Source: a virus | Taxonomy: Duplodnaviria; Heunggongvirae; Uroviricota; Caudoviricetes | Virus record (IMG/VR): IMGVR_UViG_2617270946_000015 | DNA: 4,802 bases | Direction: 5' to 3' (one strand) | In this document: positions 1 to 4,802 of the stretch, piece by piece | How positions within the stretch are numbered: the first letter of the stretch is position 1 | Layout: the number at the start of each line of letters is the position of its first letter | Position numbers and translations under genes: made by a program | Notes under the pieces: generated by a model | Databases searched by the model: none | What the model was told of the DNA's origin: nothing | The model's input: the letters and a program-made list of their open reading frames with translations, nothing else

Positions 1-2
1 CC

Positions 3-1232
3 CGTGAAATATACCGCCTGGAGCCTGAAGAAAGCTGTTGCCCGGAGTGTGGCGGTGAGCTGGATTATCTGGGGGAAGTCAGCGCAGAACAACTGGAACT
101 GGTGAGCAGCGCCCTGAAAGTGATCCGCACAGAACGGGTAAAAAAAGCCTGTACAAAATGTGACTGCATCGTTGAAGCACCGGCGCCGTCCCGCCCGATA
201 GAGCGTGGTATCGCGGGCCCCGGATTACTTGCCCGCGTGTTAACGGGAAAATACTGCGAACACCTGCCACTGTATCGTCAGAGTGAAATCTTTGCCCGAC
301 AGGGTGTCGAACTGAGCCGTGCATTACTCTCCAACTGGGTTGACGCGTGCTGCCAGTTAATGACGCCGCTGAATGATGCCCTGTACCGTTATGTGATGAA
401 TACCCGCAAGCTTCACACTGACGACACACCGGTAAAGGTACTGGCACCGGGCCTGAAAAAGACGAAAACAGGGCGCATCTGGACGTATGTCCGGGATGAT
501 CGCAATGCGGGTTCGTCATCTCCTCCGGCGGTCTGGTTCGCGTACTCATCGAACCGGCAGGGGAAACACCCGGAGCAACACCTCCGCCCCTTCCGGGGTA
601 TCCTGCAGGCGGATGCGTTCACAGGTTATGACAGGCTGTTCAGTGCAGAACGTGAAGGTAGTGCGCTGACAGAAGTTGCGTGCTGGGCTCATGCCCGGAG
701 AAAAATCCACGATGTATACATCAGCAGCAAAAGTGCGACGGCAGAAGAAGCCCTGAAGCGAATCAGTGAACTGTACGCCATCGAGGATGAAATACGGGGA
801 TTACCAGAGTCAGAGCGTCTTGCAGCCAGGCAGCAGCGAAGCAAAGCGTTACTGACGTCGCTGCATGAATGGATGGTGGAGAAGAATGGCACGCTGTCGA
901 AAAAATCCAGACTGGGCGAAGCGTTCAGCTATGTACTGAATCAGTGGGACGCCCTCTGTTATTACAGTGATGACGGTCTGGCGGAGGTGGACAATAACAC
1001 AGCGGAAAGAGCGCTTCGTGCAGTCTGTCTCGGAAAGAAAAATTACGTGTTCTTCGGTAGCGATCACGGCGGCGAGCGTGGAGCACTGCTGTACGGGCTG
1101 ATCGGCACCTGCCGTCTGAACGGTATCGATCCGGAAGCGTATCTGCGCCATATTCTGAGCGTACTGCCGGAATGGCCCTCCAACCGTGTTGACGAACTCC
1201 TGCCATGGAACGTAGTACTCACCAATAAATAA
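3..1232 (+). CDS. tnpC: IS66-family transposase (TnpC/orf3), 5'-partial; N-terminus lies upstream of the window
   Basis: Frame 3 is open from the window edge (pos 3) to TAA at 1230-1232 (410 codons); the ORF track reports it only from an internal GTG at 102. Translation from pos 3 reads ...EESCCPECGGELDYLGE...KKACTKCDCIVEAP..., a paired-cysteine zinc-finger region that I recognise as typical of IS66 TnpC, followed by a long transposase-sized body (HTDDTPVKVL, WAHARRKI, VDNNTAERALR). The stop is followed directly by an IS66-type terminus. Family assignment is from motif recall, not a search. Confidence 0.9.
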   Translation, partial: REIYRLEPEESCCPECGGELDYLGEVSAEQLELVSSALKVIRTERVKKACTKCDCIVEAPAPSRPIERGIAGPGLLARVLTGKYCEHLPLYRQSEIFARQGVELSRALLSNWVDACCQLMTPLNDALYRYVMNTRKLHTDDTPVKVLAPGLKKTKTGRIWTYVRDDRNAGSSSPPAVWFAYSSNRQGKHPEQHLRPFRGILQADAFTGYDRLFSAEREGSALTEVACWAHARRKIHDVYISSKSATAEEALKRISELYAIEDEIRGLPESERLAARQQRSKALLTSLHEWMVEKNGTLSKKSRLGEAFSYVLNQWDALCYYSDDGLAEVDNNTAERALRAVCLGKKNYVFFGSDHGGERGALLYGLIGTCRLNGIDPEAYLRHILSVLPEWPSNRVDELLPWNVVLTNK

Positions 1233-1261
1233 GCGTCAATACGGTGCTCCGTTGACGCTTA
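1230..1261. repeat. Perfect 10-bp palindrome (TAAGCGTCAA / TTGACGCTTA) with 12-nt spacer inside the IS66 terminal inverted repeat, overlapping the tnpC stop codon
   Basis: Seen directly: 1230-1239 taagcgtcaa and 1252-1261 ttgacgctta are exact reverse complements; spacer 1240-1251 tacggtgctccg. The tnpC TAA (1230-1232) lies in the left arm. Confidence 0.6.
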
Positions 1262-1262
1262 C

Positions 1263-1471
1263 GAATTACCGGAAAAGAACTCTCTATTTTCTCTTCACGC
1301 TTAAATGCAAATAAATTCCCGATCGTTATCGACTGGTTAAGTAAAGGGTTAATTAAACCAGAAAAATTAATTACCCATACGTTTGATTTCCAGCATGTTG
1401 CTGATGCCATTAGTTTATTTGAACAGGATCAAAAACATTGCTGCAAAGTCTTACTCACTTTTTCTGAATAA
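1263..1471 (+). pseudogene. rspB: 3' fragment (last ~69 codons) of a zinc-type medium-chain dehydrogenase/reductase gene, truncated at its 5' side by the IS66 insertion; rspB-like
   Basis: In-frame translation 1263..1468 gives ITGKELSIFSSRLNANKFPIVIDWLSKGLIKPEKLITHTFDFQHVADAISLFEQDQKHCCKVLLTFSE, stop TAA 1469-1471. This is a typical C-terminal tail of a Zn-dependent MDR alcohol/threonine-dehydrogenase-type protein (LITH...F...KVLL ending). The frame has a TGA at 1253-1255 inside the IS terminus, so the gene has no start here. The rspB name rests on my recollection that rspB flanks the Qin prophage integrase in E. coli K-12; unverified. Confidence 0.55.
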
Positions 1472-1528
1472 TACCAATAACGGCGAGTAAGTAGTACGCA
1501 TCTTACCTCTTTTTTAGAGATAACCATT

Positions 1529-1639
1529 ATGACAATAGAAAAACACGAAAGAAGCACTAAGGATTTGGTGAAAGCAGCAGTATCGGGATGGCTGGGCACT
1601 GCGCTTGAATTTATGGATTTCAAGAGTCATGCGTGTTAA
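1529..1639 (+). pseudogene. ydfJ: 5' fragment of an MFS (metabolite:H+ symporter-type) transporter gene, interrupted after ~31 codons by prophage integration; ydfJ-like
   Basis: ATG at 1529, 57 bp downstream of the dehydrogenase stop. Translation MTIEKHERSTKDLVKAAVSGWLGTALEFMDF ends in the G-x-x-x-E-(W/F)-x-D-F signature found at the start of TM1 in MHS-family transporters (ProP/KgtP/ShiA-like). The sequence then diverges (KSHAC) and stops at 1637-1639, 20 bp before the convergent integrase stop. ydfJ is recalled as the gene split by the Qin prophage in E. coli K-12; symbol unverified. Confidence 0.5.
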
Positions 1640-1658
1640 CTATTTGATAAATATTAAA
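1604..1658. other. Approximate chromosome/prophage junction (attL or attR core expected here)
   Basis: Transporter similarity ends at about codon 31 (pos 1621) and the integrase stop is at 1659-1661. The interval is A+T-rich and contains a short inverted repeat, cttgaa (1604-1609) / ttcaag (1619-1624). The exact core cannot be defined without the other prophage end or an uninterrupted allele. Confidence 0.3.
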
Positions 1659-2954
1659 TTAATTTTTCATTGCTTCGTTATGGGGCATGGTTGGGGCAAA
1701 CTCGCTTAACTGTGTATTTAACAAAGCTACCTGTGCATTATTGTTTTCAGACATCCATTTTCCGTATACCTGAAATACCATTTGCGCATCTGCATGGCCC
1801 ATCTGGTTTGCTATAAATGCCGGGTTAGCACCAGCTGTCAGCGACCAGCAGGCATAAGTATGTCTCGACTGATATGATTTTCGATGGCGGAGTCCGGCAC
1901 GTTTTATCGCTGCGTCCCACATCTGCCTTATTGAGTCAACGGTAAAATGGTCACCATAATTTTTTACTCTCGCTGACACTTCAGGTTGAAAAACAAAGGT
2001 GCATTTTTGTTTTTCTGTTCTGCCATACTCTCTGAGGTGAACATCAATGATATGCTCTTTGCTCAGTCTCGTTAATGTCATCTGACTCCGGAGAGCGTCG
2101 ATTGCTGGCTTAATAAGATGAATGACCCGATTGGTTCCCGCCTGTGTTTTTGGTACCGTGAAACGGTCTTTTGCTAAATTTCTCCTGATCATCATTGTTC
2201 CATTTTTCAGATCTATGTCCTCCCATCCAAGTGCACACAGCTCACCAGGGCGAACTCCAGTATAAACAGAAACACACCATAAATTTTTTGCTTGCTGATT
2301 TCTGCACGCATCGATAAGACGGATAAATTCTTCCCGCGAAAGAGGATCCGGAATGGTTCTTGATTCCTTTAATGGCGAGATCCCCTTAAACGGATTATCT
2401 GCCAGGTAACCGTTATCAACACCAAACTGGAACACGGCGTTAAGATTTGTCATGTAATTATTTACAGTTACAGCCGATCTCCCTGGTTGTGTAACAATAT
2501 AGTTACTTTTGGGGATCTGGTATCCAGTCAGTAACTCTTTACGAACCTCCAGTAATTTTTCTTTATTAATCGATGAGGCAAGATTTTTTTCACCGATTAT
2601 GCTCAGGATATTTTTGATGACGGCACGGTATGTGTTGAGTGATGTTTTGGCGACTTCAGTTTCTTTCAGTGCCAGAAATTTTTCAGCCAGTTCTTTTATG
2701 GTTAAATCTTGTCGGGCCTCACCAAATTTTTCCAGATTGCGTGAGGAGGGAAACTGTTTTGCATAGTCGAAAACACCAGTTTTTATTGCGTAACAAACAG
2801 AGGAGCGTAGTTCACCTGCAACGCGCCTGTTTTTTGCTGTGTCAGGAACCCCCAGATTTTCCCTGACTCTTACGTCTTTATAAACAAACCAGATACGTAA
2901 TTTCCCTCCATGGTTTTCCACGCCTGTCGGATATTTCATTTCAACTTCTCTCAT
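1659..2954 (-). CDS. int: Phage tyrosine integrase (site-specific recombinase) with N-terminal arm-type DNA-binding domain
   Basis: 431-codon ORF. N-terminus YPTGVENHGGKLRIWFVYKDVRVRE resembles the arm-binding domain of Rac/e14/Qin-type lambdoid integrases. The catalytic region carries VYTGVRPGEL (Arg box), ...SRHTYACWSL... (R-H) and ...MGHADAQMVFQVYGKWM (His and the Tyr nucleophile). The longest ORF starts at ATG 2954 (MREVEM...); the internal ATG at 2939 (MKYPTGVE...) is preceded by a GAGAGAAG purine tract and may be the real start. Confidence 0.93.
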   Translation of the reverse strand: MREVEMKYPTGVENHGGKLRIWFVYKDVRVRENLGVPDTAKNRRVAGELRSSVCYAIKTGVFDYAKQFPSSRNLEKFGEARQDLTIKELAEKFLALKETEVAKTSLNTYRAVIKNILSIIGEKNLASSINKEKLLEVRKELLTGYQIPKSNYIVTQPGRSAVTVNNYMTNLNAVFQFGVDNGYLADNPFKGISPLKESRTIPDPLSREEFIRLIDACRNQQAKNLWCVSVYTGVRPGELCALGWEDIDLKNGTMMIRRNLAKDRFTVPKTQAGTNRVIHLIKPAIDALRSQMTLTRLSKEHIIDVHLREYGRTEKQKCTFVFQPEVSARVKNYGDHFTVDSIRQMWDAAIKRAGLRHRKSYQSRHTYACWSLTAGANPAFIANQMGHADAQMVFQVYGKWMSENNNAQVALLNTQLSEFAPTMPHNEAMKN

Positions 2955-2973
2955 TAGTTAGTGTGGCTTTTAG

Positions 2974-3225
2974 TCAAGTAAGATGACGTCTTGGTCTCGC
3001 TGATGCCTGGCGCTCAATCCAGCGATCAATTTCTTCCAGGTTGTAAAAGCATGGACTGTTATCCCATGGCATACCGTCATGAGCGACATGCTTATATTCC
3101 CTTCCTTCCATAAACGATTTTTCCCGGGCCTTTTTTAACGTACCTTTTTTTATTCCTTTCAGCGCAATTAACTGCTCTTCGGATACCCATTTGCCGGGAG
3201 AGACAATCATGATTACTTCGCTCAT
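2974..3225 (-). CDS. xis: Excisionase-like / small DNA-binding recombination directionality factor (putative Xis)
   Basis: 83-aa basic ORF immediately upstream of and co-directional with int (19-bp gap), the canonical xis-int arrangement. The motif ...KGTLKKAREKSFMEGREYKHVAHDGMPWDNSPCFYNLEEIDRWI... resembles the excisionase-like small proteins found next to integrases in enterobacterial prophages. Assignment is by position and motif recall, not a search. An alternative start at the second ATG (MIVSPGKW) is possible. Confidence 0.7.
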   Translation of the reverse strand: MSEVIMIVSPGKWVSEEQLIALKGIKKGTLKKAREKSFMEGREYKHVAHDGMPWDNSPCFYNLEEIDRWIERQASARPRRHLT

Positions 3226-3254
3226 CGATTTCTTTATCTCTTACATCAGACGAG

Positions 3255-3286
3255 CGCCGGTTGCAGAATACCAGTCACAACCGGCG
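3255..3286 (-). promoter_or_regulatory. Intergenic inverted repeat (9-bp arms, 14-nt spacer) between the exonuclease-domain gene and xis; possible protein-binding site or RNA hairpin
   Basis: 3255-3263 cgccggttg and 3278-3286 caaccggcg are exact reverse complements. It lies in the 72-bp gap between the stop of the upstream gene (3298) and the xis start (3225). No U-tract follows on the transcribed strand, so it is not a classic intrinsic terminator. Confidence 0.3.
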
Positions 3287-3297
3287 ACAGTTGAACA

Positions 3298-4797
3298 TTA
3301 AGAATCAGCCTGACTCGGGATCAGTTTTTGCCAGATAACTGAAACGTATTTTGCCTGGTAACGGGCGTCATCAAGTGCATTATGGCGCTCACCTTCGAAT
3401 GGAATAGCCGTTCTGGCATCGAAGTCTATGGCTTTCCCCAGCTCAACGATTGTGCGTACATCGCGATCGTTGTAGTAACGCCACGGGCAGGGGATCCCCT
3501 GCCGTTCGTATGAACGGCGCAAAATCGTGTTGTCGAAGTTGGCTCCATTTCCCCAAACCTGAACAAAAAATTCACCGGAGTTTTCGTCGATAAATTCTCG
3601 CAATTGTAACAGTGCATCATCTAACGGGATTTCATCGGTCATAATGGCAGATTGCGCTTCGCGTGATTGCTTAAGCCACCATTTAATGGTGTCCCGATCA
3701 ATGACTCCGCCAGCAGTTTCCAGATCGATAGTCTTACTAAATTCCGGTCCCATATCTCCGGTTTGCGGATCGAAAAATATTGCACCTATTGAGATGATCG
3801 GGGCATCAGGATTTTTTCCCATGGTTTCAAGGTCGATCATTAGATGGTCACACGTCCTGCTGGTGGATGTGATTTCTTGATGACCGTTCACCTTAATTGA
3901 GTGATCTGCCGTCTCGCCAGTTTCATTATCGCTATCGTGATGCTGATTGCCGCCAGTGTTCTCCTTGTGTGGATGTTCAGCGCCTTCCATTTCCTCCGGA
4001 TTATCTTCCTGAACTTCAGGCTGATACTCTTCATCGAATGTTTCCTGGTATGTTGCGTCGCCCATTACCGCGCCACAATCAGGGCAGTTGCCGCCGCCGG
4101 TCTGACCGCAGGCGGTGCAGACTTTTTCCACTTCCTGTTGCGCCACTGATTCAGGCTGTTTCGTTTCTGGCTCGTTTTGTAACGCATTTGGGCTGTTTTG
4201 TTCCGCTTTCTGGTCGTTCTGTTCCGTTTCTTGCTGGTTCTGGTTCACAGAATCGCGGGTCTGGTTCCCCTTAACCCATTTCGGATCATTCGGGTCGCTA
4301 ATCCCTTCAACAAATTCACCACGTGATACTGCAAGCAGTTCATCGGCGTCAGGCTGGCTGATATTGGCTGCCTGCATAATTTTGTTTACTTCGTCAGCGG
4401 TAACTTTTACTGACCCTGGTTGTGCGGTCGTGTCAGATGCACCAGTATTTTGTTGTGAACCTGAGTATGTACCGTTTTTGCAGGCGAAATATTCTTCTTT
4501 CGTGATTTCAGTAGCCCCAGCAGACAGCGCCTTATCCAGACCAGAAAGTTTGTTTGCGCGACCGTATTTTTCGCCATCCTTGTCGGTGAAGAGGAAGTAG
4601 AACGGCCCCTCACGTTCTACAGATGGTTCGACTTCCACTTTGCATTCGGTTTTTTCGTTGTCCGGAATTGCCGTTTCCACTGCATCAGTTTCTGGTACTG
4701 GCGACGAGAGAGTATCAGTTGCGCTCTGATTTGTTCCTTCATCTTCAAACACGCCCTTTGTAGTCAGGTATTCAGTAATGTATTTGTTCAGTGCCAC
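3298..4797 (-). CDS. Prophage multi-domain protein: N-terminal domain of unknown function, acidic Q/N/E-rich linker, C4 zinc ribbon and C-terminal DEDDh-type 3'-5' exonuclease domain
   Basis: 499-codon ORF, stop TAA at 3298-3300 (minus strand). The C-terminal ~190 aa carry the three DnaQ-like exonuclease motifs in order: Exo I D-x-E in [10 protein letters not shown], Exo II in [15 protein letters not shown], Exo III H-x4-D in [13 protein letters not shown]. Upstream is a CxxC-x10-CxxC ribbon ([16 protein letters not shown]) flanked by strongly acidic low-complexity sequence. The reported start is a GTG at 4797; the frame stays open for the 5 nt to the window edge, so the true start may lie beyond the window. 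Confidence 0.85.
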
Positions 4798-4802
4798 AGG
4801 GT

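Follow-up and report, generated by a model that had tools for sequence, protein, structure and literature searches.

We conclude that the stretch of DNA analyzed here (4,802 nucleotides, referred to below as the window) almost certainly carries, at positions 1529 to 1700, the integrase-proximal attachment site (attL) of a Qin-type lambdoid prophage, formed by Int-catalyzed recombination between attP and attB within the transporter gene ydfJ. We determined the breakpoint, the core, and the relationship among attP, attB, attL, and attR, and we established what Int and Xis are and that both are intact. The far-side core repeat and the 3' fragment of ydfJ were verified in relatives only; the other end of this prophage is beyond the 4.8-kb window.

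The window opens with an insertion element. Positions 1 to 1262 are 100% identical to copies annotated as "IS66-like element ISEc47 family," and this ISEc47-like, IS66-family element, which ends at 1262, breaks rspB at nucleotide 811/812. (In the reference locus L001, rspB occupies 2190 to 3209; adding 1738 to a window coordinate gives the L001 coordinate.) An earlier note on this DNA had placed a dehydrogenase gene before the start of the transporter. The gene in that position is rspB, but it is represented by a 209-nt 3' fragment alone. At the opposite edge, the exonuclease gene runs out of the window; its full-length counterparts in relatives are 2469 to 2472 nt long.

Features of the window, mapped by listing its ORFs, scanning for protein families, and comparing it with annotated genomes of E. 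coli.
Feature	Positions	Strand	Basis or remark
3' part of IS66-family transposase gene plus right end of the element	1-1262		PF03050, PF13817, NCBIfam IS66
rspB 3' fragment (last 69 codons, ...KVLLTFSE*; 209 nt)	1263-1471	+	Host flank upstream of ydfJ
ydfJ 5' stub: codons 1-31, read as B arm plus core of attL	1529-1621	+	100% identity with intact ydfJ and with K-12
Hybrid 36-aa ORF: MTIEKHERSTKDLVKAAVSGWLGTALEFMDF (31 YdfJ residues), then phage-derived KSHAC and TAA (1637-1639)	1529-1639	+	Translation
att core TTATGGATTTC, 11 bp	1611-1621		Four-way alignment of att sites
Phage arm, read as P' arm of attL	1622-1698		Matches the right flank of the core in PhiR42_1 attP exactly
Candidate H'-like bending site, IHF consensus (TATCAAATAGTTA = WATCAANNNNTTR)	1637-1649	-	16 nt past the core
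Candidate P' arm-type Int-binding sites, two copies of TGGGGCA	1681-1687, 1692-1698	+	11 bp apart, within the last int codons
int, 431-aa tyrosine integrase	1659-2954	-	PF12167, PF00589
xis, 83-aa excisionase, DUF1233 family	2974-3225	-	PF06806, E=1.6e-31
ydfE-type 3'-5' exonuclease gene, 3' part, 499 codons, runs past the window end	3298-4802	-	PF16473, E=1e-67

The junction was located at the level of single bases by comparison with an uninterrupted allele, as the earlier note had suggested. In strain Iso00041, the locus has the order rspA-rspB-ydfJ-ydfI, with an intact ydfJ of 455 aa. Base-level alignment with this empty site revealed that window positions 1500 to 1621 are identical and that the sequences are unrelated beyond. 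Positions 1529 to 1621 (31 codons) match the 5' end of the intact gene, and the identity ends after 1621, which places the breakpoint at 1621/1622. A megablast search with positions 1263 to 1700 (438 bases) yielded matches in 5147 of the 5426 complete E. coli genomes. The matches stop at window positions 1621 to 1624 where an intact "MHS family MFS transporter YdfJ" is annotated, and in the other genomes they continue into an annotated integrase.

These data bear out the proposal that a prophage is integrated inside an MHS transporter gene: ydfJ codons 1 to 31 run into five codons of foreign origin and then TAA. Because the uninterrupted allele encodes a 455-aa MHS transporter, the possibility that the 36-aa peptide is a native full-length product was ruled out. 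The junction had been put at about 1620 to 1658. The switch from host to phage does fall at the left edge of that range, but the core (1611 to 1621) is upstream of it, and 1622 to 1658 consists entirely of DNA of the phage P' arm. On the minus strand, int ends with a stop codon at 1659 to 1661, 37 nt from the core, and the gap between this codon and the end of the 36-aa ORF is 19 nt (1640 to 1658), not the 20 bp given earlier for the distance between the two convergent stops.

The core was mapped by aligning the empty site, this junction, four far-side junctions (from lysogens that include K-12), and the attP sites of three free phages. The empty site, attB, reads ...GCGCTTGAAT-TTATGGATTTC-CAGTTATATTCG... 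The attP of HannyBb, mEp460_ev081, and PhiR42_1 is uninterrupted and reads ...ACACCTGTGAA-TTATGGATTTC-AAGAGTCATGCGTGTTAAC... (the right arm is also given as AAGAGTCATGCG). The far-side junctions of HCP5S3_I4, a K-12-type strain, and two others read ...AAAAACACCTGTGAA-TTATGGATTTC-CAGTTATATTCGC..., continuing as CAGTTAT... into ydfJ. At the other prophage end, where a core repeat and the 3' portion of ydfJ were expected, both were found in relatives (four lysogens, including K-12). In the three free phages, the left arm of attP is the far-side arm and the right arm is the window sequence from 1622 onward. The arms of attB and attP reassort exactly as expected for attL/attR hybrids. Positions 1529 to 1700, with a bacterial left arm and a phage right arm, read as B-O-P', which by the lambda convention is an attL.

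Of all blocks, only TTATGGATTTC is shared without change by all four kinds of site: attB, attP, the junction in the window, and its far-side counterpart. It spans ydfJ codons 28 to 31, comprising the last two bases of Phe28, Met29 (ATG, 1613 to 1615), Asp30, and Phe31. Since no other block is identical across attB, attP, and both junctions, the alignment indicates that strand exchange must have occurred within the 11 bp at 1611 to 1621; the cleavage positions themselves are not readable from sequence. A 16-bp core, tgaatttatggatttc (1606 to 1621), was considered, as megablast resumed ydfJ homology at nucleotide 78 of the gene. It was rejected: the phage side has one T fewer, and the ungapped identity is 11 bp. 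The perfect core is a short one; if one T indel is allowed, the similarity widens to 15/16 over 1606 to 1621. A homopolymer sequencing error behind the missing T also was discounted, as all seven sequences (four far-side junctions and three attP) agree. Inverted core-type Int-binding half-sites (resembling CTTGAAAT) were sought by eye and are not claimed, the spacing being 1 bp different between attB and attP. Separately, a core-like sequence (18/21) is present within int at 1729 to 1749.

We propose, with high confidence, the following route to this arrangement. Int recombined the phage attP with attB by an exchange of strands within the common 11-bp core, at ydfJ codons 28 to 31. This split ydfJ: the promoter side retains codons 1 to 31, followed by 5 phage codons and a stop (the 36-aa ORF), and the other 427 codons, starting from Met29, would have been moved about 50 kb, to the opposite prophage end, without the promoter, the region of the ribosome-binding site (RBS), or the first 28 residues. 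The phage arm follows the order of the lambda P' arm, with the core, an IHF-consensus site, paired candidate arm-type sites overlapping the 3' end of int, int itself, and xis.

Inspection of the phage arm identified sequences that could serve as accessory sites. The IHF-consensus match at 1637 to 1649 is the only exact match in the window, which is a weak statistic given that 44 of 200 shuffled sequences (22%) contain at least one match. The same match is conserved in the 3 attP sequences. A P-arm pair matching the two P' repeats (TGGGGCA and TGGGACA, 11 bp apart) is found at -137/-126 from the core in all of the attP sites and far-side junctions. The consensus of these repeats, TGGGRCA, a motif defined post hoc, has 4 matches in 5.2 kb of PhiR42_1 DNA, all of them within about 140 bp of the core. 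These observations suggest candidate roles for 1637 to 1649 in IHF binding and for the TGGGGCA pair as arm-type sites.

Domain analysis of the integrase revealed an Arm-DNA-binding domain (PF12167, E=3.8e-22), matches to the SAM-like core-binding region, and a catalytic domain (PF00589, E=4e-18). RefSeq annotators place the start 5 codons later, giving a protein of 426 aa. The closest solved structure is that of Tn1549 Int (E=4e-9), with which the catalytic residues R235, K269, R364, H387, and Y397 align; the usual His-I position is occupied by Y361, and the Int of mEp460_ev081, a phage described as functional, is the same at this position. The protein is identical to PhiR42_1 Int at 431/431 residues and has 2 differences from the HannyBb protein and 4 from that of mEp460_ev081. 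xis has the same orientation as int and lies 19 nt upstream of it, and the Xis protein is identical in PhiR42_1, HannyBb, and mEp460_ev081. The P' arm and core also are identical to those of PhiR42_1 attP. The earlier view that int and xis are intact here therefore holds: both are uninterrupted, Int being that of PhiR42_1 and Xis that of three free phages, whereas the intQ of K-12 is truncated by IS2. Because Int is identical to PhiR42_1 Int and Xis to that of three free phages, the int/xis end looks excision competent.

By extension, this particular prophage, whose far end lies beyond the window, may be able to excise. It is a serious possibility, although in our judgment not the leading one, that the element instead is grounded (cryptic), a remnant as Qin is in K-12, and is incapable of excision or phage production despite its intact int/xis end. 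Decay is frequent at the Qin site, as illustrated by the IS2-truncated int of K-12 and by the multiple intQ mutations in most Qin matches (PMC6379469). The closest relative, HCP5S3_I4, has IS3, IS100, and ISNCY insertions as well as pseudogenes within its prophage, the source genome of the window is itself IS active (ISEc47 in rspB beside the junction), and the visible part of the element amounts to only 3.2 kb. Against this stand the identity of Int to that of the free phage PhiR42_1 and of Xis to that of three free phages, the identity of the core and P' arm to PhiR42_1 attP, and the lack of any IS or frameshift within 1622 to 4802.

We also considered the consequences for the transporter. 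The intact YdfJ scores 462.9 bits against TIGR00883 (the NCBIfam model for MHS, metabolite/H+ symporter; cutoff, 443.45), with residues 23 to 418 aligned to profile positions 1 to 400. The intact allele is named "MHS family MFS transporter YdfJ" by PGAP (TC 2.A.1.6, MHS family). The ORF had been said to read into the MHS-family signature GTALEFMDF. This motif begins at residue 23, exactly where the TIGR00883 alignment begins on the intact protein, so the stub keeps nine positions of the family core. The counterpart motif in ProP is GNAMEWFDF. A search for a solved structure homologous to YdfJ on which to place this TM1 motif returned none at E≤1e-10. The 36-aa ORF retains 31 of the 455 YdfJ codons and has no Pfam match; the ydfJ product of the window is a gene fragment and not a transporter.

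At the far end, a 427-codon frame from Met29, whose ATG is within the core, is open in K-12 and has the length of the older K-12 "YdfJ." In all four lysogens examined, PGAP labels the far-side fragment as a pseudogene lacking its N terminus. It had been doubted that the phage end rebuilds a functional transporter frame, and the sequence agrees: a rebuilt in-frame N terminus (ATGGGAAAAAACACCTGTGAATT...) was rejected, as the ATG on the phage side is in another frame, in which a stop follows after 19 codons. Since the 3' part is left without its own promoter, RBS region, and first 28 residues, the transporter likely is inactivated by the integration. A promoter and terminator scan of 1200 to 1800 found no sigma-70-like promoter for ydfJ and no terminator, which is uninformative on expression of the stub.

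The alternative that integration spares the transporter, with the far-side 427-aa ORF transcribed from the phage end and working in an N-terminally shortened form, appears unlikely to us. It draws on the Met29 ATG inside the core, on the open 427-codon frame in K-12, and on the fact that the 3' fragment has not decayed further (97 to 99.9% identity) even though half of E. coli genomes are occupied. The fragment nevertheless has lost the promoter, the RBS region, and 28 residues, which include the first 6 MHS-profile positions (GTALEF); the upstream ATG in phage DNA opens a different frame that ends after 19 codons; 4/4 lysogens carry the pseudogene label; and promoter loss with truncation has been described before (PMC6379469). 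Inactivation of ydfJ remains our preferred reading.

The prevalence of the arrangement was assessed in the same set of complete E. coli genomes. An 80-bp query centered on the junction was covered in 2723/5426 genomes (50%), and the corresponding 80-bp empty site was covered in 2013/5426 (37%). The presence of the same 80-bp junction in so many genomes shows that the resemblance is not due to chance. The contiguous segment rspB-ydfJ'-int-xis-exo (1263 to 4802) was recovered at ≥80% coverage in 2124 genomes (39%); an uninterrupted int/xis end therefore is the usual state and not the exception. The whole window was found in no single genome among the complete genomes in the collection. The closest relative, HCP5S3_I4, is 99.4% identical over 1263 to 4802, and in it a lambdoid prophage, complete and about 51.2 kb long, is flanked by two cores. 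The genes of this prophage run from int, xis, exo, dicB, and ydfD to terminase, head, tail, tail fiber, pinQ, and ydfK, and it contains the Qin gene complement (dicB/dicF/dicAC, rem, relBE, hokD, and csp genes).

One further idea concerns regulation, and we regard it as very improbable. The promoter side of host ydfJ (or of rspAB-ydfJ) might read antisense into the 3' end of int, the sequence at 1729 to 1749 might be a second Int-binding or pseudo-att site, and host carbon or starvation signaling through the locus under rspR control might then modulate the expression of int, or the excision of a prophage that is very widespread in E. coli. Finally, an origin of the breakpoint in another event (an IS-mediated rearrangement, illegitimate recombination, or an assembly artifact), for which the IS66-family element (1 to 1262) lying 350 bp from the junction might be cited, is effectively refuted by the base-for-base agreement of the junction with the attB x attP product, by its presence in 2723 independent complete genomes, and by the position of the IS end at 1262, within rspB and away from the junction.

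Published work already covers the integration site, the truncation by 28 codons, the prevalence, and the fact that functional relatives exist, and current understanding is unchanged by these results. Qin has been described to integrate site specifically at the 5' end of ydfJ, with loss of the promoter and 28 N-terminal codons; among 638 strains of Escherichia and Shigella, 48% carried it, with frequent intQ mutations (PMC6379469). For E. coli W, K-12, B, and Crooks, Qin has been listed as inserted in ydfJ (PMC3032704), and a 46.8-kb lambda-like prophage of strain SE11 has been reported "between ydfJ and rspB" (PMC2608844). Our independent counts (50% of genomes and 28 codons) agree with the published figures. 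For annotation, the 36-aa ORF should not be called a gene; it is a 5' fragment of ydfJ that belongs to the attL of a Qin-type prophage, whose boundary is defined with single-base precision at the core (1611 to 1621). The window presents the undecayed int/xis end that K-12 has lost; this end is common (39% of complete genomes) and identical to that of sequenced free phages (Int to PhiR42_1, Xis to three).

The earlier note had matched the arrangement to the rspB/ydfJ/Qin site of K-12, and correctly so. K-12 has the same integration site, core, junction sequence, and gene order (rspB - ydfJ' - int). The host-side query, 1263 to 1700, is 100% identical to K-12 derivatives, and the identity is 100% over 1263 to 2818 with TOP10. 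Over 1622 to 2818, the K-12-type locus L002 is 99.9% identical (1197 nt, one mismatch), which indicates that this is the same integrase gene as intQ. K-12 Qin differs in that it has lost xis, its intQ lacks the N terminus and lies beside an IS2 fragment, and IS2 truncates its exonuclease gene. Here, in contrast, int (431 aa), xis, and at least 499 exonuclease codons are uninterrupted, and rspB additionally is cut by the ISEc47-like element.

Free phages represent the excised form of such elements, with a continuous attP, whereas the window represents the integrated form. The int-xis DNA of PhiR42_1 (from ECOR13), HannyBb, Tritos, and mEp460_ev081 is 99.0 to 100% identical to that of the window, and these phages diverge in the exonuclease region, the identity over 1622 to 4802 being 96.2 to 97.6%. 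mEp460_ev081 has been described as a temperate phage that is functional and carries Qin-like dicB/dicF/dicAC/rem (PMC10448788). Site-specific integration inside host ORFs also is known for e14 in icd and Rac in ttcA; e14 duplicates the 3' end of icd and keeps the gene whole, and Rac alters the N terminus of TtcA (PMC6379469). Unlike e14, the Qin-type phage does not rebuild its target, as the phage-side ATG is out of frame with ydfJ.

A final comparison was made with lambda. The sites of this phage are used by Int, Xis, and IHF, its attP is laid out with P and P' arms around a 15-bp core, and its target lies between gal and bio. Several features are lambda-like: the integrase is of the tyrosine type and has an arm-binding domain at its N terminus, xis is adjacent, int is next to the P' arm, and the outcome is a prophage bounded by hybrid attL and attR. 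The order of candidate sites also appears to be analogous, with the core, an IHF-consensus site, and direct repeats in P', and paired repeats about 130 bp out in P. Unlike the situation in lambda, the target is within a protein-coding gene, the core measures 11 bp instead of 15 bp, and the arm-binding domain belongs to PF12167. The candidate P' sites differ as well in that they overlap the coding end of int, because the int stop codon is just 37 nt from the core.

The strain from which the window derives carries an insertion upstream of the prophage. An ISEc47-like element of the IS66 family, of which strain ST540 and plasmids carry 100% identical copies, interrupts the 1,020-nt rspB gene at nucleotides 811/812. 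Since ydfJ also is split, both rspB and ydfJ are disrupted in the source strain. The junction between the insertion element and rspB was found in none of the complete E. coli genomes in the collection (0 of 5426), as no record covers at least 80% of the whole window.

Coordinates of the features discussed.
Feature	Window position	Strand	Remark
ISEc47-like element (IS66 family)	1-1262		Right end at 1262, terminal ...CGCTTAC
rspB, remaining fragment	1263-1471		
P' arm and 3' end of int	1622-1948		
Core-like sequence within int	1729-1749		1135-1155 of the extracted PhiR42_1 locus
Exonuclease gene, 3' part	3298-4802	-	

Inspection of the integrase revealed a tyrosine at residue 361 (YQSRHT versus H-x-x-R), the position occupied by the first catalytic histidine in most tyrosine recombinases. 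The same residue is present in mEp460_ev081, a phage described as functional, and Tyr361 thus appears to be a family trait rather than a defect. The 3' coding end of int also contains the core-like sequence acctgtgcattattgttttca, which matches 18 of the 21 bases of ACCTGTGAATTATGGATTTCA, the attP left arm plus core, located 127 bp upstream of it in the phage. A second match to ACCTGTGAATTATGGATTTCA with three or fewer mismatches arose in none of 200 shuffles. Possible explanations for the core-like sequence are an att-like site, either vestigial or secondary, and an additional core-type binding site for Int.

Relative to the free phages HannyBb, mEp460_ev081, and PhiR42_1, the int-xis region is 99 to 100% identical, whereas identity over the whole of 1622-4802 falls to 96.2 to 97.6%, with 2 to 10 gap openings. 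In these alignments, the divergence is concentrated in the exonuclease gene, which points to a mosaic boundary near the xis/exonuclease junction.

Fifteen Stx2a-converting phage records (among LC727844-LC727872) terminate in sequence approximately 90% identical to the P' arm and the 3' end of int; for one of them, Stx2a_EH1535, identity was 93% over 1,152 nt. Stx2a prophages whose integrase is related thus seem to use the same att site as the Qin-type prophage or a similar one. In bovine strain 7_15_5C (NZ_CP074830, 1-1500 of the extracted locus), the far-side ydfJ junction is flanked on the phage side by nleC, whose product is a type III effector, and by a DinI-like gene, which take the place of ynfT/ydfK/pinQ. 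Despite the different adjacent genes, the core and P arm are unchanged there, and this att/int system is thus common to different lambdoid cargo modules.
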